Shown here piece after piece: positions 550 to 60,772 of a DNA stretch of 64,000 bases (position 1 is the first letter of the stretch; every line of letters begins with the position of its first letter). A program made the position numbers and the translations under genes. The stretch comes from Chloroflexota bacterium (GTDB lineage Bacteria; Chloroflexota; UBA11872; VXOZ01): assembly GCA_965207135.1 (NCBI GenBank), contig OZ242272.1:2837044-2901043 (forward strand), given 5' to 3'. The notes below the pieces were generated by a model. That model was not told where the DNA came from, made no database searches, and saw nothing but the letters and a program-made list of their open reading frames with translations.

Positions 550-1116
550 CTAGGGATACCGCCCAATCAGGAGCACGGGAATCCAGGTAAGCCAGTACAC
601 AAGCATTACCAGAAGTCCAATTACAAACAAGAAGATGAAGAAAGGGACGAGTAGGGCAAACCGGAATAATCCACCGGCGAGCGGCAGCGCCAATAAGCGG
701 TTCGGCTGGGCCGGTTTCGCAAATTCAAGCCGTACGCCATCGCTAGACTTGAGCGAAAACCCAGGGTACGTATCGCTGAGGCCGAGTGCAAAGCAGTTGG
801 CTTTGGCTGTCAGCCGCATCGAACCAACGGCGAGGGCGTAGGCAGGCTCCCAATACTTGCCCGTAAAGAGCACGACAAACGCATTAATGATGCTAAGGAA
901 GGTCGCGCCGAAGTCTACGAACAAGAGCCAGAAACTTACCGGAATCACAATCACGAGCTTGACTGCGCCGCCAATCACCGGCAACGCCCACAGACGATTT
1001 GGATTCTGTGGGTATTCTATGGTCAGCGATGAGTGGTCTCTTGCTTGTGTGGGAGCGCCGCTGTTCATGGGCAAGTCTCCTGTTCTCTTCACCACCCGCG
1101 TCCAAGCGAATACCAA
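550..1116 (-). CDS. DUF4389-like integral membrane protein
   Basis: 188-aa ORF with two pairs of hydrophobic helices (PVIGGAVKLVIVIPVSFWLLFV... and LLVPFFIFLFVIGLLVMLVYWL). The repeated internal architecture is typical of the DUF4389 family. The family name is from memory. Confidence 0.5.
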   Translation of the reverse strand: MVFAWTRVVKRTGDLPMNSGAPTQARDHSSLTIEYPQNPNRLWALPVIGGAVKLVIVIPVSFWLLFVDFGATFLSIINAFVVLFTGKYWEPAYALAVGSMRLTAKANCFALGLSDTYPGFSLKSSDGVRLEFAKPAQPNRLLALPLAGGLFRFALLVPFFIFLFVIGLLVMLVYWLTWIPVLLIGRYP

Positions 1117-1361
1117 TGCACAGAGTCTTGTGAATATTGAGCACGAATTACGCGGGACAAGACTACTCTACCGGCTCAATGCAACCATGACAAACCAAGT
1201 TGCAATCGCATTGGACAACTGTCTTGGCGCGCTTCTCGATCCGTTGGGTCACTCATCACCGTGGCACGTGGTTTGCCGCCCACAATTTGACGTACACTGA
1301 TTGGAGCCATGTTTCGCTACTGACCACGCACCAGGCAGAAACCTGCGCAAAGGAACATCAC

Positions 1362-4262: not shown

Positions 4263-6752
4263 CTACGCCGTAGCCTTCACCCGATTCAGTTCCGGGTGTA
4301 GTGCAAGGGCGAGGACTTCGCTCACATTCTCAACCGGGTGAAACGTTATGTCGTCCCGCACGTGTTCCGGGATGTCAACCAAGTCTTTCGTATTCTCCTT
4401 CGGCAAGATGATCGTGCGGATACCGGCGCGGTGCGCGGCGAGTACTTTTTCCTTGAGGCCGCCGATAGGCAGCACGCGGCCGCGCAGAGTCATTTCGCCC
4501 GTCATGGCCACGTCACGCCGCACCGCCCGCTCGGTAAGCGCTGAGATGAGCGCCGTCGTGAGCGTAATGCCGGCGCTCGGGCCCTCTTTCGGCACGCCGC
4601 CCGCGGGCACATGTATGTGGACGTCCAGTTTTTCCCAATTGAAGTCCTGCAGGCGCAGTCGCTTTGCGTGCACGCGGGCGTAGCTTAATGCCGCGCGACC
4701 GGATTCCTTCATCACTTCACCGAGTTTGCCGGTCAACAGGAGTTTGCCCTTGCCTGGCACGAGGGTTACTTCCACCGCGATGATATCGCCGCCGAACACC
4801 GTCCAAACGAGACCTGTTGCCGTGCCGACTTGGTCTACGTCTTCCGCCATGCCATAGAAGAACTGGGGCGCGCCCAGAAACGTATTCAGGTTCCGCGTGC
4901 TCACTGAGACCGTTGCGTTCTCGCCCTCTGCATGCTTGCGCGCGACCTTGCGGCAGACCGTCGCCACCTGTCGTTCCAGATTGCGCACGCCCGCCTCCCG
5001 CGTGTACTGGCGCACCATGCGGCGCAACGCGCCTTCGGTAAAGCGCACGTTGCTCTTCTTCAAGCCGTGCTCGGCCCGCTGCTTCGGCACAATGTAACGA
5101 GTGGCGATGGGCAGCTTGTCTTCCTCGGTATAGCCGGGAAGTTCGATCACTTCCATCCGGTCGCGCAACGCAACTGCCAAAGTGTCTACGGTGTTGCCCG
5201 TAGTTATAAAAATGACGTTTGAGAGATCGTAGGGCACCTCAAGATAGTGGTCCGAGAAGGCGTAGTTTTGCTCCGGGTCCAGCACCTCCAGCAAGGCCGC
5301 CGACGGGTCCCCGCGAAAGTCTGCGCCCATCTTCTCGATCTCGTCCAGCATGAAGACAGGATTTACGGTGCCCACTTGGCGCATGGCCTGCAGAATTCGC
5401 CCCGGCAAAGCCCCCACGTAGGTGCGCCGATGGCCGCGAATCTCGGCCTCGTCACGAATTCCGCCCAGAGACATGCGCACGAATTTTCTGCCCAGTGCTT
5501 GCGCAATCGAAAGGCCTAGGGATGTCTTGCCCACTCCGGGCGGCCCCACGAAGCAGAGAATTGGCGTGCGCACGTCGGGCGCAAGCTTGCGCACCGCGAT
5601 GTATTCGAGGATGCGTTCCTTAACTTTGGGCAGGCCGAAGTGATTCTTGTCTAAGACCTTGGTCGCGTGCTCGATATCGAGATCGTCTTGGCTCGGCTCT
5701 CCCCACGGCAGCGCCAGCAGCCAATCAAGATACGTCTGGATAACGCTCACTTCCGGGCTGGCCGTGGGCATTGCTTCCAACCGGTCGAGCTCTTTGTACG
5801 CCTTCTCTCTTACATCCTCAGGCAGTGGAGTCTCCTCCACGCGCTCGCGCAGCGCGGCAATGTCGCTACTGACCTGATCGGTCTCTCCCAGCTCTTTATG
5901 GATGAGCTTAAGTTGCTCGCGCAAGAAGCGCTCGTGCTCCTCAGCGTCCGTGGCGGTGGGCGCGGCATCCTCGTCGATCTTCTGTTGCAACGCCAGAATC
6001 TCTAACTCGCGCCGCAGGTGGGAGATCACCTTTTCCACACGAGCGGTCACTTCGAGCTCTTCCAGCAACTCCTGTTGCACCGGCGTCGTCAGATCGATAG
6101 TGTACGCGATGAGGTCTGCCAGGGCGCCTGCGTCATTTGTGTTGATTGCTTGCACGTACGCCTCTTCGGGAAGGTCCTTGCTGAGTTCCACCGCTTCCTT
6201 GAAGAGCGCGAGCATGGCTTGCATCTGAGCCGCTAGCTCATCTCCATCCGCGGCCGGTGGCTCAACGACAATCGCCTGCACGCGTATGTGCGGGTCCATT
6301 TGAAGAAAGTGGGTAATGGCAAGTCGGCGTTTCCCATCAACCAGAATGCTCACGCTGCCGTCCGGCATCTTGAGCGTCCGGCGTATCGAGACCTCCACAC
6401 CCACAAGGTAGAAGTCTTCAGGATTAATGTCGTCGATCGTTGGGTCGCGCTGTGTGACCACGAATAGGCGCCGGTCGCTGTCGAGCGCATTGCTCACGGC
6501 CTCCAAGGACCGTTCGCGCGCCACGATCAGCGGCACCGTCATGCCTGGGAACACCACCTGGTCGCGAATTGCCAGCACCGGCAATTCAACCGGATGCAGC
6601 ATGGCCTCCATCAAGTCCACCTGCTGGTCGCGGCGGCCCCCGGATCGCGACTTCCGCCGCTTGGCTCCGTCTCCGTTCGCGGTCGCCGCCTCAGAGCGCT
6701 CTTTCGTAGATTTCTGTTTTTTGTCTGCCACTGCCTCGTTCTCTCTTGCCAT
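4263..6752 (-). CDS. lon: ATP-dependent protease La (Lon)
   Basis: Walker A GPPGVGKTS, a Lon substrate-binding N-domain, and the proteolytic Ser motif PKEGPSAG. The start is taken at MARENEAVADKK (ATG at 6752). Confidence 0.93.
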   Translation of the reverse strand: MARENEAVADKKQKSTKERSEAATANGDGAKRRKSRSGGRRDQQVDLMEAMLHPVELPVLAIRDQVVFPGMTVPLIVARERSLEAVSNALDSDRRLFVVTQRDPTIDDINPEDFYLVGVEVSIRRTLKMPDGSVSILVDGKRRLAITHFLQMDPHIRVQAIVVEPPAADGDELAAQMQAMLALFKEAVELSKDLPEEAYVQAINTNDAGALADLIAYTIDLTTPVQQELLEELEVTARVEKVISHLRRELEILALQQKIDEDAAPTATDAEEHERFLREQLKLIHKELGETDQVSSDIAALRERVEETPLPEDVREKAYKELDRLEAMPTASPEVSVIQTYLDWLLALPWGEPSQDDLDIEHATKVLDKNHFGLPKVKERILEYIAVRKLAPDVRTPILCFVGPPGVGKTSLGLSIAQALGRKFVRMSLGGIRDEAEIRGHRRTYVGALPGRILQAMRQVGTVNPVFMLDEIEKMGADFRGDPSAALLEVLDPEQNYAFSDHYLEVPYDLSNVIFITTGNTVDTLAVALRDRMEVIELPGYTEEDKLPIATRYIVPKQRAEHGLKKSNVRFTEGALRRMVRQYTREAGVRNLERQVATVCRKVARKHAEGENATVSVSTRNLNTFLGAPQFFYGMAEDVDQVGTATGLVWTVFGGDIIAVEVTLVPGKGKLLLTGKLGEVMKESGRAALSYARVHAKRLRLQDFNWEKLDVHIHVPAGGVPKEGPSAGITLTTALISALTERAVRRDVAMTGEMTLRGRVLPIGGLKEKVLAAHRAGIRTIILPKENTKDLVDIPEHVRDDITFHPVENVSEVLALALHPELNRVKATA

Positions 6753-29192: not shown

Positions 29193-29981
29193 TTAACGCT
29201 GCTCGCTCTCGTAGGCACGGTAGATGTCCACCGAGCGGTACAGCTCGTCCATGACTTCCGGAATCAGCACCTCCGCCGTGGGTCCGCAGGCGATAACGCT
29301 GCGGTTGAGGCACAGACAATCGTCGGTCAACCGCCGGATGTAGCTGATGTTGTGCGAAGCGAGGAGGATGGTCTTCCCCGCGTCGCGCATCTCTTGCAGC
29401 ACAAGGGTCATGACCTCTTGGGAGGTGAAGTCTACTCCCCGAAAGGCTTCATCCAGAATCAGCACCTGCACATCCTGCGCCAGGGCGCGGGCGACGAAGA
29501 CCCGTTGCTGCTGTCCGCCGGAGAGTTCCGCAATCAGAGCATCGCGCCTGTCCCACATCCAAACTTGGTTGAGGGCGTCCTCCACGGCTTGCTTGTCGGC
29601 GCTCCCCGGCCGGCGAATCCACCCGATCTGCCGCGTTCGGCCCAGCATCACCATGTCCCGCACCGTCATGGGCAGGTCCCAGTTGATATTCTGGCGCTGC
29701 GGCACGAACGCGACCTGCCCTCGCGAGTCCCCTATCGACTTGCCGTTGATGCGGACCCGGCCCCCTCTGGACGGGATGAGACCGGTGAGTGTATTGAAGA
29801 GCGTGCTCTTGCCGGCGCCGTTGGGGCCAATAACGCCCATGATGCGAGAGCTGTTCGCGGAGAAGGTAACACCATTGAGCACCTGGACCTCACCGCGGTC
29901 CACGTAGAGGTCCTCCACGGAAAGTGACGGCAGGGCCGCGTCGCTAGACTGCTCCCGCGTACTTTCTGCGGCCACGTTCAT
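29193..29981 (-). CDS. znuC: Metal ABC transporter ATP-binding protein
   Basis: Walker A GPNGAGKST, signature LSGGQQQRV and Walker B ILDEAF. It overlaps the upstream binding-protein gene by 4 nt. Confidence 0.8.
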   Translation of the reverse strand: MNVAAESTREQSSDAALPSLSVEDLYVDRGEVQVLNGVTFSANSSRIMGVIGPNGAGKSTLFNTLTGLIPSRGGRVRINGKSIGDSRGQVAFVPQRQNINWDLPMTVRDMVMLGRTRQIGWIRRPGSADKQAVEDALNQVWMWDRRDALIAELSGGQQQRVFVARALAQDVQVLILDEAFRGVDFTSQEVMTLVLQEMRDAGKTILLASHNISYIRRLTDDCLCLNRSVIACGPTAEVLIPEVMDELYRSVDIYRAYESEQR

Positions 29982-31171
29982 TGCAACGCCTCAACAACGA
30001 GCCGGACGTTGGACTGCACCATGGTGATGTAGGTATCCGCGCCACTGCCCTCGGATCCGAGGGAATCCGAGTAGAGCCGCACGAGCGTTGCGCCGGCCTC
30101 ATTCGCCAAGGCGGTGGCGAGGCGCTCCCGCGCAATCTTTTCACCAAATACTGCCTGCACGTCACGCTCTCTCATCAAATCGACGAGATGCGCCAGATGC
30201 TCCGCTGACGGTTCCGCATCTTCAGCAATCGACAGGATTATCCCCACAACCTCGAACCCGTAACGAACCGCGAAGTAACGGAAATAGTCGTGCGAACCGA
30301 GAATCAACCGCTTCTCAGCCGGCACCGCGTTGACCTGTTCCAGCGTCCATGCGTGGAGTGCCAGGACTTCCGCGTTGTAGGCGGCTGCATTGGCTAGGTA
30401 TTCGTCCGCATGATCCGGATCGAGTTCCGCGAAACGGGCGGCAATCGCATTGATCGCAACTACAACACGGAGTGGATCGAACCAGAAGTGCGGGTTGTGC
30501 GCCCCGTGGTCGTGTCCGTGCTCAGCTTCTTCGTCGTCGGCGTGGCCGTTGTCTTCGTCATCGTGGCCTTCATCCTCGTCGTCGTCATGGCCTTCTTCTT
30601 CGTCATCGCCATGGCCATTGTCATCATCGTCATGACCTTCTTCTTCATCGTCGTCGTGGCCGTCGTCGTCTTCGTCGTGGCCTTCATCCTCGTCGTCGTC
30701 ATGGCCTTCTTCTTCATCGTCGTCGTGGTCGCCCTCATCCTCCGTATCGCCCAGGATGGGATCGACGAGGTCGCCCAACGTCAGCACTATCGACGAATCC
30801 CGCGCCACATTGCGCAAGAGCTCTTCAAGCCAGAAGCCCTCCATGCCCAGTCCGATGGCAATAATCAAGTCGGCTTCTGCGATTTTGGCCGCGTCGCGGG
30901 GTCCGGGTTGGAAACCGTGCGGGTCCACGTCTGTCGGTATGAGGCTTGCCACTTCCACACGTTCGCCGCCGACTGCCTTGGCCCAGTCCGCGAGGACATT
31001 CGTGACGGCAATGACACGAATCGCCGGCGCCTCAGAGGGCGCGGGCTCAGCGCTTGGCTCGTCGCCTCCGCACGCGGCAACAGTTACGAGCACAAGTATC
31101 ACGAACGCCGTCCACAGACTTTGCCGCAGACGGCGGAACTGGGCCATGCTCCTGCCGAAAACTCGTCTCAT
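29978..31171 (-). CDS. znuA: Metal ABC transporter solute-binding lipoprotein (ZnuA-like) with an expanded His/Asp/Glu-rich loop
   Basis: Lipobox VTVAACGG and a TroA/ZnuA-like fold (DPHFWFDP-type HNPHFWFDP). An acidic His-rich loop of about 85 aa is present. The start could be 31171 or 31147. Confidence 0.78.
   Translation of the reverse strand: MRRVFGRSMAQFRRLRQSLWTAFVILVLVTVAACGGDEPSAEPAPSEAPAIRVIAVTNVLADWAKAVGGERVEVASLIPTDVDPHGFQPGPRDAAKIAEADLIIAIGLGMEGFWLEELLRNVARDSSIVLTLGDLVDPILGDTEDEGDHDDDEEEGHDDDEDEGHDEDDDGHDDDEEEGHDDDDNGHGDDEEEGHDDDEDEGHDDEDNGHADDEEAEHGHDHGAHNPHFWFDPLRVVVAINAIAARFAELDPDHADEYLANAAAYNAEVLALHAWTLEQVNAVPAEKRLILGSHDYFRYFAVRYGFEVVGIILSIAEDAEPSAEHLAHLVDLMRERDVQAVFGEKIARERLATALANEAGATLVRLYSDSLGSEGSGADTYITMVQSNVRLVVEALQ
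30495..30745. repeat. In-frame degenerate tandem repeats (units about 24 and 45 nt, plus a 38-nt exact duplicate) encoding a (GHDDDEEE/GHDDDDN)n loop
   Basis: Protein segment DEGDHDDDEEEGHDDDEDEGHDEDDDGHDDDEEEGHDDDDNGHGDDEEEGHDDDEDEGHDDEDNGHADDEEAEHGHDHGAHNPH. The DNA block GTGGCCTTCATCCTCGTCGTCGTCATGGCCTTCTTCTTC occurs twice (30563-30600 and 30678-30716). Confidence 0.8.
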
Positions 31172-31255
31172 CTTCCTGAAACCTCTTTGTTTCTATGCAA
31201 CACACCTGCCGTTTGGGATAAAAGCCTCATGCTAGCCCGCCTAACTCACCCGACG

Positions 31256-32080
31256 CTAGCGTTGCGTCGCCGCGACCGCCTGGCACGCCTCAATGAACTG
31301 ATCGTACCCGATCGTGTCCCCCACTGCCTGTTGAAAGTACTTTAGCGCCGAACGGGTCATGAGCCGCTCGGGAAAGGTATCCGGGTACTCCACTGCCAGC
31401 GTCGCTTCACGAATGAGGAAGACCCTATAGCCGTAGCCCAGCATCGGTTGCGTAGCGCCGGCGGAGCCCAGGATGCACATGTTCGTCGCGAACCCCGTGT
31501 AAATGAGATTCTTGATGCCCTTGCTGCGGCAGATGCGGTCGAACTGGGCGCTGGTGAGAATCACCTGATCGCCGGGCTCAGCGTCGCATGACTGGATGAT
31601 GCGCATCTGCTGCCAGCCGTCCCAGTCGCTGTAGCCTTTGCCGTGGGAGCGTTCCGCGCGCTCCAGGTTCCAACCCGGATTGGCCTCCGGCGGGCGCGCC
31701 GGTCCGGGCGGCGGGTTCGTATCTTCTTCTTCCAGCATGTAGTGGACCGAGTCGTACTTCATAGCAATGTTCCCCGGCTCCACGTGAAATATCTGCATGC
31801 CGGCATCGCGAGCGGCTGCGATTGCCGGGCGGATATAATTGTCGGCAATCCGTACTGATTCACCTTGGTTTTCGAGCGTGCCCATGTCCACAAAGTATTC
31901 ATCCGGCACTGCCGGACCATTCACGTCGCCCATGTTCCAGAGATGCAGCGCGACGAAGCCGGTTTCCGCCGGATTGAGATTGAACTCTTCTTCAACCCAA
32001 TCGGCATCACGCAAATTGGGCGTACCCCAATGCGTGCCCAGCAATCGCAGACCTACCTTTGTTTCGGTTGCCACAGTCAT
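31256..32080 (-). CDS. Isochorismatase-family (cysteine hydrolase) protein
   Basis: NLIYTGFATNMCI is the catalytic Cys region of the isochorismatase fold. The N-terminus carries a conserved D...K arrangement. It is larger than typical members because of an internal insertion. Confidence 0.65.
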   Translation of the reverse strand: MTVATETKVGLRLLGTHWGTPNLRDADWVEEEFNLNPAETGFVALHLWNMGDVNGPAVPDEYFVDMGTLENQGESVRIADNYIRPAIAAARDAGMQIFHVEPGNIAMKYDSVHYMLEEEDTNPPPGPARPPEANPGWNLERAERSHGKGYSDWDGWQQMRIIQSCDAEPGDQVILTSAQFDRICRSKGIKNLIYTGFATNMCILGSAGATQPMLGYGYRVFLIREATLAVEYPDTFPERLMTRSALKYFQQAVGDTIGYDQFIEACQAVAATQR

Positions 32081-32150
32081 TCATCCCTCCGCAATTAATT
32101 GCGAGATTTCTTGTATGATAGGGGAGGTAAACTTGCCCCACGTAAGCGGC

Positions 32151-32480
32151 TCACGGTAGAAGCACTTGCAGGACAGCAAGGACGCCAGCCGCGCCCACGA
32201 CGAGAGTGCCCAAGCGCAGCGTCAGACGCAATTCCAAGTCTTTCAGGTCGGCTTTCGTTGATTGCGCCAACGCTTGTAGATGCATATCTAATGCTTGTAT
32301 GCGAATGTCTAGCGCTTGAATTTCAGTTTTGGTCATTTGCGCTAGGTCTTGCAGATCGGCTTTGGTTGCTAGCGCCTCGTGAGATTCGCCGACCGCGCCA
32401 ATTGGGGCCTCAGCTTGTGTTTCGTTGAAGCCGGCAGCTGTGAGCGTCTTTACGGCCTTATGGGTATCGAATACAGCCAT
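32151..32480 (-). CDS. DUF1640-like coiled-coil protein with a C-terminal transmembrane helix
   Basis: MAVFDTHKAVKTLTAAGFNETQAEA... has repeated ATKADLQDL/STKADLKDLELR heptad-like units and ends LGTLVVGAAGVLAVLQVLLP. A paralog lies at 59437-59737. Confidence 0.65.
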   Translation of the reverse strand: MAVFDTHKAVKTLTAAGFNETQAEAPIGAVGESHEALATKADLQDLAQMTKTEIQALDIRIQALDMHLQALAQSTKADLKDLELRLTLRLGTLVVGAAGVLAVLQVLLP

Positions 32481-32575
32481 TGGTCGCCTTTCTTACTGCG
32501 TGCGCATAGTCACATCACGCACGTTCCTTTGCGAGACACCACGCCACCACTCTCACACTATGTCCATACTACTGC

Positions 32576-32603
32576 GTAGGGGCACGACATGTCGTGCCCC
32601 TAC
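32576..32603. repeat. Perfect 28-nt palindrome, repeat family A, copy 2 (GTAGGGGCACGACATGTCGTGCCCCTAC)
   Basis: The core is identical to 27128-27155. It is intergenic, between the binding-protein gene and the DUF1640 gene. Confidence 0.8.
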
Positions 32604-32659
32604 AAAAGTTAATCATGCAATCACTTTAGCCACCGACCATCGGCCGGCGAGCGACTACG

Positions 32660-34051
32660 TTAGCAGAGGCAGCCGCCCTCGCGGAGCGCGTTCTCGGCAA
32701 CCCTTTGCATCTCTTCCTGGACCTCTTGGACCGTCTTGGTTTCCAGCTCCAAGGCTTCCCAGTTTTCGGTCCACGCAGAGTTGACGTCAGACTGTTTGAC
32801 CACCTGACGCTGTTCCACGCTGATCTCGGCAGAGCGCGCGTATACTTCCGGATCCTCATAGTCGTAGACTGTGAAGCCCTGGAAGTTCTTGTTCGATACG
32901 TAGCGTCCGCCGCCCAGCGGCACGATGAAGCTCTGACCTTCCTGGCTCAGCCAGAATTTGTAGAAGTCCCATGCGCCATCGGGATTCTCAGAAGAGCTGG
33001 AGATCCAGTTCGCGTTGATGGACTGCACGATCTGGCGTCCCGCCGGACCATTCGGCAGCATTTCCATCTCTACCGTGAACGGTTCCTCCTGGGACATTAT
33101 CTGCTCTTCGATCGTCCGCGTGCCGTACGATCCCCAGGTGCGGCCCGCCAGCAATTGCGTGTTGAAGTCCGCTGCCACGTCGTTCTCACTTGGGGCGGCT
33201 CGACTCGGCATCACGCGGTGCTTCGTCACCAAGTCAGCGGCAAACTGTGTGCCTTCGGCAAACTCTTGCGAGAGCATAGCCGGCGCCGAAAAGTCTTCAT
33301 TCCACCACGTTGCGCCATACGCCATCAAGTGGATCCAGTGCCAACCGAATGAGTAGGAGGGCGTCCAGAAGCCCCACTGCGTCACGTTATTGCCCTCTAC
33401 CGTGGTCAGTTTCTTCGCGCCTTCCAGCAACGCATCCCAGGTCCACGTGCCCTCGGCTTCATGCTCCTTGGGAGTCTTGAGACCGGCCTCGGCGTAGAGA
33501 TCGGCGTTGTACCAATACTCTTTGCCGTTGGTGAACCAAGCAATACTGTACACCTGTCCTTGGATACGCTCCGTCGCCCAGACGTGATAGTCGTCCTTGC
33601 TGACCTCAGCGTCTGCCGACAAGAACGGCTCCAGCGACTGGATCATCTCCGCCGTCGCGAACTGGCTGATGTAAGAAAAGTGGCCGTAGTATACGTCGTA
33701 GGAAATGCCGCCGGCAAACGACGCCAACGCCTTATCGATGGTCTCCGCGAAACAGCAAACCGTAGGGTCGACCTGCAGGTCGTACTCCGGATACCGCTCG
33801 CGGAACGTGTCAAAGAAGGCGCCAAACGACTCGTCCCACACCGCTTGATTCGTGGTGACGTGCAGGTACTTGACGATTTTCTGCTCGGCTGGGGCCGGGG
33901 CCTCGGCAGCCTTTTCTTCCTTGGGCGCTTCCGCCGCAGGCGCGTCGCCTGCAGGGGCGGTCGCTACCTGCCCGCATGCCGCAAGCAGCAAGCCGGTACC
34001 GGCTACCGCAGTGCCGCCAAGGAACGTCCGTCGTGTCAAATCTCCACGCAT
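32660..34051 (-). CDS. ABC transporter solute-binding protein (family 1), Tat/lipoprotein; paralog of 20905-22296
   Basis: MRGDLTRRTFLGGTAVAGTGLLLAACGQ carries a Tat motif and a lipobox. It is clearly homologous to the 20905 gene, including the shared C-terminal ...LEEGGCIC / LREGGCLC. Confidence 0.78.
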   Translation of the reverse strand: MRGDLTRRTFLGGTAVAGTGLLLAACGQVATAPAGDAPAAEAPKEEKAAEAPAPAEQKIVKYLHVTTNQAVWDESFGAFFDTFRERYPEYDLQVDPTVCCFAETIDKALASFAGGISYDVYYGHFSYISQFATAEMIQSLEPFLSADAEVSKDDYHVWATERIQGQVYSIAWFTNGKEYWYNADLYAEAGLKTPKEHEAEGTWTWDALLEGAKKLTTVEGNNVTQWGFWTPSYSFGWHWIHLMAYGATWWNEDFSAPAMLSQEFAEGTQFAADLVTKHRVMPSRAAPSENDVAADFNTQLLAGRTWGSYGTRTIEEQIMSQEEPFTVEMEMLPNGPAGRQIVQSINANWISSSSENPDGAWDFYKFWLSQEGQSFIVPLGGGRYVSNKNFQGFTVYDYEDPEVYARSAEISVEQRQVVKQSDVNSAWTENWEALELETKTVQEVQEEMQRVAENALREGGCLC

Positions 34052-34436
34052 GACCTGCCTCCTGCAAAAAATGCTGTCTCTATTAGGAAACTAACCTGCG
34101 GGCGGTCCGCCCTTAGGCCAATGCTCCAAGTCAACTCGCGATCCAACTATCATCCTCTCAGGACCTTGCCTTCACCTTACAGCGGCTGCCCGCACATGCG
34201 AGAGCGCTTTATCCTGCTGAGCTCGCATTCTTGATTTAATTGACCCCTCCTTTGCGTGACCCCTCAGCGTACACACCATCTATTAAGAAGAAGACAAGAA
34301 CTGCAAGAAAGTTATAGCACGTTTTTGAACAGTTGTCATCCGATTTAGCAGGACTAACGGTTAGGCTGCCTGTGCGAGAAGCCGGGCAATGAACGCCGCT
34401 CTTTGCACCACTGGAGTATTTTTCTCCAGCGCGTAG

Positions 34437-34465
34437 TTGACAGCCAACAATTACCGTTTTAGAAT
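34437..34465 (+). promoter_or_regulatory. Sigma70-type promoter TTGACA-N17-TAGAAT
   Basis: Consensus -35 at 34437-34442, an exact 17-nt spacer, and -10 TAGAAT at 34460-34465. It sits about 85 nt upstream of the ATG at 34550. Confidence 0.55.
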
Positions 34466-34549
34466 GCCCCCAGCTACGAGGGGTGGCCTGGCAGGATTAT
34501 GGCGAATCATGCCAGAAGCAAAGTTGACAACAAAGAAGGAGGTAGCGCC

Positions 34550-35992
34550 ATGCTCGAAAGTACGTCTCTATCCCGACGTCGCCTACTAGCGGGGTCGGCA
34601 ATGCTAGGGGCAACGTCTGTCGTTTTTGCCGCCTGCGGCGGCGCAGCGCCGGCAGACTCCGGCTCCATGGAGGAAGCCAAGGCAGAGCCGGAATCCAAAG
34701 AAGCAGCGCCTGCTAAGGAAATGGAGAGCGTAAATATCGTCGCTTTCCTTAAGGTGCCGACTGAACTCGAGCAAGAGTTCATGCAGAACATGGCCGACCC
34801 GTACATCGCCGAGAATGAAGGAACGACGGTTGAGCTCGTTTCTCAGGTAGGCGGTACGGCCGACCGTGTTGCCAAGATCAAGACCATGCAGGCCGGCGGC
34901 ATTCCGCCGGACATCTCCGAGTTCCCGCGCCGCGCCTTTGCGCAGGTGATGCAGGACCTCGCCCAGAACATGGATGACCTGGTCAAGGCTGCCCAGCTCG
35001 ATTTGAGCGTCTACAATCCGAATCTCCTCGAGCGCGATGCCATGTTCCAGGGGCAGGTCTACCTGCTGCCCATGGGTCACGGCGGCAACGCCCACGTGGT
35101 CATGATCAACCCCAACTACTTTGAGGCAGCGGGACTCGACTACCCGTCGGCGGACGTGGAGAACTCCTGGACGTGGGACGAGTGGCTTGAAGTGATGGTC
35201 AAGCTGCGCGAATTCGAGGGGGACGAAGTGAGCCAGTGGGCGATGGGCAACCACGCACACGACTGGTGCTCATGGCAGTTGCTCTGGGGCGACGAGTGTA
35301 GCTGGATTTCGCAGGACCTGACAACGGCCACCTGTGATTCCGAAGCCATGATTGACTGCTACACGAGTTTCTTCGATCTCGTGCACAAGCACAAGGTCAT
35401 TCCGCCGCAGGCTGACCGCAACGCCACGTATTTCGGCGGGCAGAATCCCTTCCTGACCGGTCAGGTGCCGTTGATGATCTCTGCGCCGCGCAGTTTGCCG
35501 CTCACGTACGCCGACCAGGCGCTCGAGCAGGGCGTAGACTTCGTGATGGCGCCCATGCCGCGTGTGGAGCGCTCCACGCCGGACGCCAACCAGCACAAGC
35601 TCGGTCTGGTTTACGGCAGTGAAAAGCGTGAAGCGGCCTTCAACTACATGGTCTTCCTTCTCGACAAAGGACGCTTGGGCAAGTTCGTCCGCAGAATCCC
35701 GGCTTGGATTCCTGAGATTGAGCCCTTCATCAATGAAGCGTTCGATGGGTACACCAACCCGCGCATTTCGGTGGCACAGGACGCACTCGCGACTGCCGTC
35801 CCGCAGTGGAATGTGGGTACGACGCCCGTGAGCGGTCAGATTACGACTCTGCTCAACGAGAATGGCGACGCTAGGCTTTGGACCGGTGAGCAGGACGCGG
35901 CGACCTTCCTCAAGGAAATTCAGCCGACCATGCAAGCGATCGTGGACGACGGCCTCAAGATCATCCGCGAGAAGCTTGGTAGCTGGCCGTAA
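34550..35992 (+). CDS. ABC transporter solute-binding protein (family 1), Tat/lipoprotein
   Basis: The start is taken at ATG 34550 (MLESTSLSRRRLLAGSAMLGATSVVFAACGG), with an AAGGAGG RBS 7 nt upstream. Tat motif plus a lipobox. Confidence 0.8.
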   Translation: MLESTSLSRRRLLAGSAMLGATSVVFAACGGAAPADSGSMEEAKAEPESKEAAPAKEMESVNIVAFLKVPTELEQEFMQNMADPYIAENEGTTVELVSQVGGTADRVAKIKTMQAGGIPPDISEFPRRAFAQVMQDLAQNMDDLVKAAQLDLSVYNPNLLERDAMFQGQVYLLPMGHGGNAHVVMINPNYFEAAGLDYPSADVENSWTWDEWLEVMVKLREFEGDEVSQWAMGNHAHDWCSWQLLWGDECSWISQDLTTATCDSEAMIDCYTSFFDLVHKHKVIPPQADRNATYFGGQNPFLTGQVPLMISAPRSLPLTYADQALEQGVDFVMAPMPRVERSTPDANQHKLGLVYGSEKREAAFNYMVFLLDKGRLGKFVRRIPAWIPEIEPFINEAFDGYTNPRISVAQDALATAVPQWNVGTTPVSGQITTLLNENGDARLWTGEQDAATFLKEIQPTMQAIVDDGLKIIREKLGSWP

Positions 35993-58042: not shown

Positions 58043-58391
58043 AAAGTTATCCTAAAGGGGCTTTAACGTAGTGACAGTGCTCTTGCAGAGTATACCATGC
58101 GCTTGGGTGCGCCTTGGCATGCCACAACGGCTGTTTCTGGGGTATAATGGGGTCTATGGAGCGGGCCAAACCAAAGGCGGTGTGTGCGGATCGATTGAGT
58201 GCGGATGACGCCTCTCCGGTTTGGTTCGCGCTCGCACCAGAGCGCACAAGAGTGTGCGGAAATCATATAACAGTAGGCGGCACAGCGTGACGTGCCCTTG
58301 GTGGGGTGCATGTTCTACGCTGTGATTTGTGCGTAATGTGATTTCGAACTAAAGGCTTCCAGCCTGCGGTGCCAAAGGAGGTAACACGGGA

Positions 58392-59435
58392 ATGGGTCAA
58401 AGCCAGAAACCAACCGACCGGATCTCGGACGCGGAACTTCCGGTACGCGAAGCCGGCGATCTCGGCAATTACGAAAACGACCAACTTCTCGACTTCTACT
58501 CCAGCATGCTATTCGTGCGGCGCTTTGAAGAGCGGGTCGCCGAAATGTATCTGCGCGCCAAGATCGGCGGCTACTGTCACCTCAATATCGGGGAAGAGGC
58601 CACGGTCGTGGGCACGCTCAAAGCCTTGCGCGAGGACGACTACTTCTTTGGAAGTTACCGTACTCATGGTTTTGCCATCGTCCGAGATCTTTCGCCCGGC
58701 GCGGTCATGGCGGAGCTCTTTGGCAAGCGGGATGGCTGCGCGCGCGGCCGCGGCGGTTCCATGCACCTGGTCGACCCCGATCGGCGTTTCATGGGTGGAT
58801 ATGGCATCGTTGGCGGCAGCATTCCCCTTTCCACAGGGGTCGCATTCGCAAGCAAGTACCGCAACACAGACGAAATCGTCATGTCGGTCTTTGGCGACGG
58901 CGCGACCAATATCGGCACCTTCCACGAAGCCCTCAATATGGCCTCTTTGTGGAAGTTGCCCAATCTGTTCATTTGCACTAACAATCAATATGGCATGGGC
59001 ACCAGCGTTGCGCGCGCCTCCGCAGTTACGGAACTGTGGAAGAAGGGCGTCGCTTACGATATCCCCGGGTACAAGGTCAACGGCATGGACGTGCTGGCGG
59101 TCTATCAGCTCACAAAGAAACTAGTGGAAGAAGTGCGCCGCACGAAAGAGCCGATATTCGTCGAGTGCGTAACCTACCGCTACCGGGGCCACTCAATGGC
59201 CGATGCAGGCAAGAATTACCGAACCAATGAGGAAATTGCAGCGTGGCGCAAGCGTGATCCGGTGGAGAACTTCCGCAAGCGTCTCCTCGAGGGCGAGATC
59301 TTCACGCAAAAGGACGCCGACGCCATTGAGGAAAAGGTGCTTGCCAAGGTGCAAGACGCGGTAGACTATGCCGAAGCGAGTCCCTTCCCTGACGTAGCCG
59401 ATCTGCAGCAGTTCGTCTACGCGGAGGATGCGTAG
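58392..59435 (+). CDS. pdhA: Pyruvate dehydrogenase (or 2-oxoacid DH) E1 component alpha subunit
   Basis: TPP-binding E1-alpha fold with GDGATNIGTFHEALNMA and YRYRGHSMAD (phospho-loop-like). Confidence 0.9.
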   Translation: MGQSQKPTDRISDAELPVREAGDLGNYENDQLLDFYSSMLFVRRFEERVAEMYLRAKIGGYCHLNIGEEATVVGTLKALREDDYFFGSYRTHGFAIVRDLSPGAVMAELFGKRDGCARGRGGSMHLVDPDRRFMGGYGIVGGSIPLSTGVAFASKYRNTDEIVMSVFGDGATNIGTFHEALNMASLWKLPNLFICTNNQYGMGTSVARASAVTELWKKGVAYDIPGYKVNGMDVLAVYQLTKKLVEEVRRTKEPIFVECVTYRYRGHSMADAGKNYRTNEEIAAWRKRDPVENFRKRLLEGEIFTQKDADAIEEKVLAKVQDAVDYAEASPFPDVADLQQFVYAEDA

Positions 59436-59512
59436 GCATGGCAGTGTACGATACTCACCGAGCCGTAAAGACACTCACTGCCGCCGGCTTCAGTGAGGCA
59501 TAGGCGGAAGCC

Positions 59513-59737
59513 ATGATTGATGCTATGGGCGACTCTCATGATGCACTCGCCACTAAAGCCGACCTGAATAAATTGGCTCAGGCAACCAAAGCCAACCTCA
59601 ATGAACTGGCTCAGACTACCAAAGCCGACTTGCGAGAGCTAGAGTTGCGCATGCGCTTACATCTGGGCGCATACGTGTTTGCAGCGGCTGGCCTTGTAAT
59701 AGCAGTGCTGCTCGCATTGGAGTGGTTGCCGCGCTAA
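59513..59737 (+). CDS. DUF1640-like coiled-coil/TM protein paralog (74-aa version), inserted between pdhA and pdhB. A conserved 21-codon segment plus an in-frame TAG lie upstream at 59437-59502.
   Basis: MIDAMGDSHDALATKADLNKLAQATKANLNELAQTTKADLRELELRMRLHLGAYVFAAAGLVIAVLLALEWLPR is homologous to 32151-32480. Upstream, MAVYDTHRAVKTLTAAGFSEA-TAG aligns codon for codon with the paralog N-terminus. Confidence 0.5.
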   Translation: MIDAMGDSHDALATKADLNKLAQATKANLNELAQTTKADLRELELRMRLHLGAYVFAAAGLVIAVLLALEWLPR

Positions 59738-59794
59738 GCACTATTGGCTGGTGGCTCCATTTTGCCACCAACTAGCTCAGGGAGCACAGGACCA

Positions 59795-60772
59795 ATGGCC
59801 GAAATCACGTACCGTGAAGCCTTGCGCGATGCCCTCATTGAGGAAATGGACCAGGACCCGGATGTCTTCATCATGGGTGAAGAGGTGGGTGTCTTCCAAG
59901 GCGCATACAAGGTCACTGAGGGCTTGCTCGACCGTTTTGGCGAAAAGCGGGTCGTCGATACACCGATCGCCGAGGAAGGCTTTATCGGTATTGGCACCGG
60001 CGCGGCGATGACGGGTTTACGCCCCGTCGTAGAGTTGATGACGATCAATTTCGGCATGGTTGCAATGGACCAGATCGCGAACCATGCCGCCAAGATCAGC
60101 TATATGTTCGGCGGCAGACTTAAGTGCCCCATGGTCATTCGCGCTCCCGGCGGTGGCGGTCAGCAGCTTACAGCCCAACACTCGCACAGCCTGGACGTGT
60201 GGTTTGCGTACATTCCCGGCCTAAAGGTGGTCGCACCGGCGGTGCCGGCCGATGCCAAGGGCATGCTCAAGACCGCCATTCGCGACGATAATCCCGTGAT
60301 GTTCTTGGAACATCTCTGGCTCTACAACACCAAGGGCGTGGTGCCGGAAGGCGAGCATACGGTGCCCTTTGGGGAAGCTGACGTGAAACGCGTGGGCAGC
60401 GATGTCACCCTCATCGCGCACTCGCGGATGGTTCTCTTTGCGTTGCAAGCTGCCGCTCAGTTGAGCGAAGAAGGCATTAGCGTGGAAGTCATAGACCTAC
60501 GCAGCATTCGCCCGTTGGATGCGGAGACTCTCGTCCACTCGGTGCAGAAGACCAATCACTGCGTCATAGCCGAAGAAGAGCACCGCTCTTTTGGCGTCAA
60601 TGCCGAAGTGGCCGCGACCATCTATGAAGAAGCGTTTGACTACCTGGATGCCCCCATCGAGCGCGTAGGCGGCGTGGAAGTGCCCATGCCTTATTCCAAA
60701 CCCTTGGAGCAAGAAGTGATTCCCAGCCCGGCAAAGATCGTGGACGCCGTCAAGCGAACCCTCGGCAGCTAA
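59795..60772 (+). CDS. pdhB: Pyruvate dehydrogenase E1 component beta subunit
   Basis: The start is taken at MAEITYREALRDAL (ATG 59795). Transketolase-like pyrimidine-binding and C-terminal domains are present (GEEVGVFQGAYKVT, VRAPGGGG). Confidence 0.9.
   Translation: MAEITYREALRDALIEEMDQDPDVFIMGEEVGVFQGAYKVTEGLLDRFGEKRVVDTPIAEEGFIGIGTGAAMTGLRPVVELMTINFGMVAMDQIANHAAKISYMFGGRLKCPMVIRAPGGGGQQLTAQHSHSLDVWFAYIPGLKVVAPAVPADAKGMLKTAIRDDNPVMFLEHLWLYNTKGVVPEGEHTVPFGEADVKRVGSDVTLIAHSRMVLFALQAAAQLSEEGISVEVIDLRSIRPLDAETLVHSVQKTNHCVIAEEEHRSFGVNAEVAATIYEEAFDYLDAPIERVGGVEVPMPYSKPLEQEVIPSPAKIVDAVKRTLGS

Follow-up and report, generated by a model that had tools for sequence, protein, structure and literature searches.

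A small gene of the CCDC90-like family (formerly DUF1640) lies between the E1-alpha and E1-beta genes, pdhA and pdhB, of a 2-oxoacid dehydrogenase operon in the window, the name used here for the whole 64-kb stretch of DNA that was analysed, and it is broken by an in-frame TAG at its 22nd codon (Table 1). The genes that flank it encode E1-alpha on one side and E1-beta, E2 and E3 on the other, with D-Tyr-tRNA deacylase and rpoC genes further upstream, and the same order, rpoC, dtd, pdhA, DUF1640, pdhB, pdhC, lpd, is repeated in the contigs of relatives. The initial annotation of this DNA, which was made from the sequence without database searches, had remarked on the oddity of a coiled-coil membrane gene inside a pdh operon, and the families of the genes that flank it (PF00676, and PF02779 with PF02780) confirm that this is indeed where it lies.

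The reading frame opens at ATG 59438, two nucleotides past the pdhA stop codon (TAG, 59433-59435), runs through MAVYDTHRAVKTLTAAGFSEA to the TAG at 59501-59503, continues as AEAMIDAMGDSH and closes at TAA 59735-59737. The next in-frame ATG, at 59513, follows the TAG by 9 nt. An in-frame TAG within a DUF1640-like gene had been reported in the initial annotation and is present at codon 22, although the positions assigned to it (59500-59502) and to the start codon (59437, 1 nt past the pdhA stop) were incorrect. Relatives have the same end point for pdhA, and of the 16 related Chloroflexota loci tabulated, 14 use TAG as its stop codon. The public annotation (P0010, on a contig of 3,551,770 bp) covers only the 74-aa ORF of the gene.

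Table 1. Coordinates of the interrupted gene, its operon signals and neighbours, its paralogue, and the equivalent loci of related genomes.
Feature	Position	Strand	Remarks
CCDC90-like/DUF1640 gene, 99 codons, broken at codon 22	59438..59737	+	orthologues in same slot
In-frame TAG, codon 22	59501..59503	+	T at 59501, against A (AAG, Lys) in closest relatives
74-codon ORF from conserved Met26, possible restart product	59513..59737	+	no Pfam match on its own
33-nt (11-residue) tandem repeat, 2.2 copies, LAQxTKADLxE stalk units	59555..59626	+	TRF
C-terminal hydrophobic membrane anchor, codons 76-94 (LGAYVFAAAGLVIAVLLAL)	59663..59719	+	Kyte-Doolittle mean 2.51 over 19 residues
E1-alpha gene (pdhA), 2-oxoacid dehydrogenase operon	58392..59435	+	PF00676, 309 bits
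GGAGG Shine-Dalgarno within end of pdhA, 10 nt before ATG 59438	59423..59427	+	anti-SD pairing -9.5 kcal/mol
SD-like GTGAGG, 14 nt before ATG 59513	59493..59498	+	anti-SD pairing -6.5 kcal/mol
GGGAG Shine-Dalgarno of pdhB, in 57-nt spacer	59780..59784	+	-7.2 kcal/mol
E1-beta gene (pdhB), true start ATG 59795	59795..60772	+	PF02779, PF02780; start conserved in relatives
Intact paralogue, 109 aa, CAA (Gln) at aligned codon	32151..32480	-	59% aa identity; P0036
Insert-free loci	L007-L011, L013, L016, L017: near 5026-5050; L014: 5044-5101		TAG, two bases, ATG
Broken copy, L012	5044-5371		1-nt frameshift near codon 12, stop lost; shifted frame ends 5 nt before Met30
Broken copy, L026 (L012-like)	1010-1271		at least 2 frameshifts
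Broken copy, L015	5032-5262		stop three codons early, no stalk repeats, Arg in anchor
Broken copy, L028	26-292		codon 21 is TAG, a single C-to-A change away from TCG in its relative L031

Transcription and translation signals

Promoter-like sites are found only upstream of pdhA, at 58071-58148, and no terminator-like site occurs between 58000 and 60300; the inserted gene is presumably co-transcribed with the rest of the operon. The leader of about 250 nt between these promoter-like sites and the start of pdhA matches no Rfam family at the gathering threshold.

For translation, the GGAGG within the end of pdhA serves the inserted gene, and in relatives that have no insert a GAGGA or GGAGGA at the end of pdhA precedes pdhB. 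The 57-nt spacer in front of pdhB, which holds its present Shine-Dalgarno sequence, arrived together with the insert. The longest ORF for pdhB begins at TTG 59744, and the conserved start at ATG 59795 fits the 325-aa product of all relatives. The SD-like GTGAGG in front of ATG 59513 is built from ancestral Ser-Glu-Ala codons and is identical in the related loci L003 and L005. Its pairing energy is similar to those of the sites that serve pdhB and lpd (the latter -6.7 kcal/mol), and pairing of -6 kcal/mol or better is reached by 12% of random positions.

Family and architecture of the encoded protein

When the stop codon is read as Gln, the product matches Pfam PF07798 (CCDC90-like, formerly DUF1640) with 34.4 bits against a cut-off of 33.5, in agreement with the DUF1640-like assignment made from the sequence at the outset, and precomputed matches to the same family exist for the orthologues. 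A profile built from 27 homologues finds two known structures: 6h9l, an uncharacterised prokaryotic protein, is matched with E = 1.2e-7 through ATKEDIEALRK repeats, and 6h9m, the head of CCDC90B fused to GCN4, is matched with E = 1.3e-3 through FDTH...GF..TQAE. In the latter alignment residues 4-35 correspond to the CCDC90B head. The protein encoded in the window thus has a profile score above the family threshold, a head motif followed by a coiled-coil stalk, and a C-terminal anchor; the head spans residues 1 to about 35, the stalk is made of 11-residue units, and the anchor occupies residues 76-94.

The same architecture of head, neck, stalk and membrane anchor is described for the MCUR1 family in one review (PMC8224590, citing Adlakha et al. 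2019), and the head is presented as the interaction module of the family there and in a second review (PMC7519068, citing the same work). Codon 22 falls in the middle of the head, the family-defining part of the protein, within its conserved N-terminal motif, and the module removed by the stop is most likely the one that carries specificity.

The features shared with the MCUR1/CCDC90B family, to which the prokaryotic protein in 6h9l belongs, are the head motif (FDTH...AGF..xAEA), which aligns to CCDC90B in 6h9m, the 11-residue stalk repeats (ATKxDLxxLxx), which align to 6h9l, and the C-terminal anchor. The window protein is, however, much shorter than its eukaryotic counterparts, at 99 aa, and it is set apart also by the placement of its gene within a 2-oxoacid dehydrogenase operon, by a number of stalk repeats that differs between close relatives and by the stop within the head. 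Trimeric assembly is known only for the solved relatives, and we know of no function for any bacterial member of the MCUR1/CCDC90B family.

Orthologues and the origin of the TAG

Orthologues of the gene lie in the corresponding pdhA-pdhB slot of related Chloroflexota genomes assembled from metagenomes. A protein search returns many full-length relatives of 67-89% identity, which are true orthologues since the gene order rpoC-dtd-pdhA-gene-pdhB-pdhC-lpd is identical. A PdhA scan of species representatives puts the window among uncultured Chloroflexota of this kind, and the nearest genome is CATQHC010000009 (L005, on the same contig as L003), with 98% PdhA identity, and its DNA is 95.4-96.7% identical to that of the window over 9 kb.

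At the DNA level codon 22 specifies Lys in all 13 intact orthologous loci that were read. It is AAG in the three nearest genomes (four loci) and AAA or AAG in the other intact loci, and the aligned DNA reads GCA AAG GCG in L003 and GCA TAG GCG in the window. Lys AAG in the closest relatives implies that the TAG is a single A-to-T transversion from the ancestral codon. The comparison of orthologous pdhA-pdhB regions that had been proposed to see whether insert and TAG are conserved therefore gives a divided answer, with the gene occupying the slot in some relatives and the TAG at codon 22 shared by no orthologue. When metagenomes were scanned with the protein in its Lys form, only three distant loci came up, L026 among them, none with the TAG allele. 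The allele has been seen on a single contig of a single assembly.

These results change the picture that the paralogue alone had given. By tblastn the window holds just two copies of the gene, 59% identical in amino acid sequence, and the minus-strand copy at 32151-32480 does have CAA (Gln) at the aligned codon, as first described. From this copy it had been argued that two substitutions separate CAA from TAG, which would be unusual for a fresh nonsense mutation. That argument rests on a paralogue, whereas the orthologues have Lys, one A-to-T change from TAG in its AAG form; across the wider family the aligned position varies among Lys, Gln and Met. The comparison of a paralogue in place of an orthologue can in this way make a fresh mutation seem exotic. 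The excess of synonymous differences reported for the first 20 codons of the two copies does hold, but the counts of nine codon differences and seven synonymous ones do not: 11 codons differ, eight of them synonymously (the GAG/GAA pair at codon 20 had been missed) and three with replacement (Y/F, R/K and S/N).

The intact paralogue sits among unrelated genes (window 29978-35992) for a ZnuA-type protein, two SBP_bac_1 solute-binding proteins and an isochorismatase-domain protein. A third paralogue of 101 aa (P0076) lies elsewhere in the same genome, and the family is multi-copy in these Chloroflexota.

Selection and the age of the lesion

Among intact orthologues dN/dS is about 0.02-0.14 in each segment of the gene, whether before the TAG, in the remainder of the head after it, or in the tail with the membrane anchor; judged by these ratios, intact copies of the gene are clearly functional. 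Purifying selection on both sides of the TAG, as initially proposed, is therefore real among the intact orthologues but is not informative for the time since the TAG arose. Such selection predates the lesion and reflects how the family and its orthologues have evolved over a long time.

On the branch leading to the window, polarised by three taxa with L005 and L006, the 80 alignable codons contain the TAG and two synonymous changes; under a stricter criterion, by which a nucleotide must be unique among ten sequences to be counted, the TAG and a single synonymous change remain. The translations also show an Asp-to-Asn replacement within a repeat unit, to which no polarity is assigned. A test for relaxed constraint on this branch gives a Fisher p of 0.50, on too few changes to show either constraint or decay. 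The lesion appears from these counts to be young.

Turnover of the gene across the clade

Among 14 representatives of related species, nine do not have the gene, pdhA and pdhB being 3 nt apart in eight of these and 56 nt apart in the ninth. In a neighbour-joining tree of PdhA and PdhB, drawn without support values, the insert-free loci L016 and L017 are nested in the insert-bearing group, implying repeated clean loss. The insert is bounded on both sides by ATGGC(A/G)G, a motif made up in each case of a start codon and an Ala codon, those of this gene at one end and those of pdhB at the other, and these repeats could offer a simple route to precise deletion.

Four further copies, those of L012, L026, L015 and L028, have been broken independently. 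The L028 copy carries five replacements at positions that are invariant in six intact orthologues, all of them past its TAG, and its unique changes divide 5:3 into non-synonymous and synonymous ones, where the intact copies taken together have 16:41 (one-sided Fisher p = 0.065), which suggests that this copy is decaying. With clean loss in many relatives and broken copies in several, the gene is dispensable.

Orthologues differ in stalk length too, the shortest stalks having no repeat unit and the longest seven or more, and the window differs by one unit from a relative that is 96% identical. The 33-nt repeat is present in 2.2 copies in the window, in 7.4 copies in L006 (5159-5403) and in none in L015, and the size of the orthologous proteins moves in steps of 11 residues, from 77 to 154 aa.

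One neighbouring gene also shows an irregularity. In L033 (445-1500), on a low-coverage contig whose name carries 3.41x, the called pdhA has 315 aa and some 108 nt separate its end from the DUF1640 gene, whereas the pdhA of L034, whose DUF1640 protein is identical, has 353 aa. The shortening of the L033 pdhA, by about 35 residues, may reflect either faulty assembly or damage to the 3' end of the gene.

Discussion

The TAG is in our view probably a recent loss-of-function mutation of an accessory gene, one that is often lost in this clade. An ancestor of part of the Chloroflexota clade gained the gene, with its head, stalk and anchor, exactly at the junction of pdhA and pdhB, and strong purifying selection acts on it wherever it is intact. 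In the lineage of the window, a single A-to-T change at 59501 converted Lys22 (AAG) to TAG. Translation is expected to begin at ATG 59438 through the GGAGG and to end after 21 residues, within the head, so that the full-length protein would be absent; some ribosomes may restart at ATG 59513 to give a headless 74-aa fragment of stalk and anchor, although nothing points to selection for such a fragment. The dehydrogenase genes should be little affected, since pdhB has its own Shine-Dalgarno sequence in the 57-nt spacer. The TAG would thus be the first step of a loss that is already complete in many sister lineages.

That TAG is the commonest stop among the long ORFs of the window, and is also the stop codon of pdhA, counts for reading it as an ordinary nonsense codon. 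Three observations count against a plain loss of function. Only one assembly carries the allele. The window copy shows no decay beyond the TAG itself, which leaves a still-functional arrangement conceivable. The early stops in other broken copies lie nearby: the TAG of L028 is at the neighbouring codon and likewise precedes Met26, and the shifted frame of L012 ends before Met30. Such clustering of early stops could go beyond chance.

Could the interrupted gene instead be a functional split gene, in which translation stops at 59501-59503 and restarts at ATG 59513, and the headless stalk-anchor protein is retained? The initial annotation had held termination and reinitiation to be mechanistically possible from the ATG 9 nt past the TAG, and so they are: the codon is there, with an SD-like sequence upstream of it that is close in strength to those of pdhB and lpd. 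In a weaker form of this explanation, only early stops beside a restart codon would be tolerated, since continued translation averts polarity on pdhB, pdhC and lpd. In favour of a restart, there is no terminator between pdhA and pdhB and two other lesioned copies, L028 and L012, stop just before a conserved Met. However, both Met26 and the GTGAGG belong to the ancestral coding sequence, and their identity in the intact copy of the closest relative (L003/L005) implies that they are not adaptations. The arrangement of stop and restart occurs in no other genome, and the 74-aa fragment has neither the conserved head nor a Pfam match. In L028, the closest analogue, the replacements at invariant positions past its TAG suggest decay, and two stops would fall next to each other by chance in about 8% of cases, given that a single step would turn some 25 codons into a stop. 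We therefore regard a functional split gene as unlikely, and a real concentration of early stops immediately before a conserved internal Met (codon 22 in the window, codon 21 in L028, and L012) as more doubtful still. If it were true, it would mean that in an essential dehydrogenase operon only those knock-outs with an immediate restart of the ribosome escape transcriptional polarity, or alternatively that the headless isoform of stalk and anchor has a use of its own; in both cases the locus would be a natural example of an operon influencing which of its loss-of-function alleles persist.

The base itself might also be wrong, through a base-call or consensus error or through a minority variant fixed in the consensus of a metagenome-assembled genome, in which case the organism would really have AAG and an intact gene of 99 aa. 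The TAG allele is confined to one contig, there is, apart from that base, not one non-synonymous difference from the closest relative in the 80 alignable codons, and likely assembly lesions are found in related contigs of low coverage, as in the shortened pdhA of L033. On the other hand, the change is a substitution and not an error of homopolymer length, and the long genes that adjoin the locus are of the same size as those of the relative (rpoC has 1514 aa both in the window and in L003), so that the assembly does not appear locally error-prone. Four other copies at this locus carry lesions that look real, which makes a lesion here unsurprising. An error of this kind we think rather improbable.

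Far less probable again is programmed decoding of the TAG to yield a full-length protein, whether by readthrough, by a suppressor tRNA or by insertion of pyrrolysine at the former Lys. The residue replaced is Lys, of which pyrrolysine is a derivative, and the frame past the TAG is still open and unchanged. Yet the TAG is kept by no orthologue, which argues against programmed readthrough or recoding, and AAG to TAG is a trivial one-step nonsense change to a codon that terminates pdhA two bases upstream of this gene. In the 64-kb window there are no tRNA genes, and hence none with a CUA anticodon, nor any Rfam family at the gathering threshold, and the 96 nt at 59495-59590 fold no better than shuffled sequences (z = -0.39). 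Pyrrolysine or suppressor decoding was set aside on these grounds, and the wider alternative of stop-codon readthrough or recoding raised in the initial annotation is very unlikely as well.

A recent loss-of-function mutation, the reading that we prefer, gives the window gene most of the marks of an ordinary nonsense pseudogene: a single-base change from a conserved sense codon, with intact copies in the closest relatives and deleted or broken copies in sister lineages. It differs from such pseudogenes in that there is no secondary decay as yet and the operon, with a strong Shine-Dalgarno sequence, is retained. A peptide of 21 residues, and perhaps a restart product as well, is probably still produced. 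Restart of translation past a premature stop has its classical examples in the lacI and T4 rIIB restart mutants, which the window gene resembles in having an in-frame ATG within 9 nt of the stop and an SD-like sequence upstream. In contrast to a conserved restart arrangement, restart here, as judged from sequence alone, would be an accidental by-product of mutation.

As originally posed, the finding comes down to a textbook one-step nonsense allele of little import. What has modest value is the setting: a bacterial member of the MCUR1/CCDC90B family within the 2-oxoacid dehydrogenase operon of one Chloroflexota clade, strongly constrained where it is present and yet repeatedly lost or broken, with a stalk that changes by 11-residue steps between near-identical genomes. 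Its placement in the operon and the variation in stalk length could guide experiments on the role of this family in bacteria.
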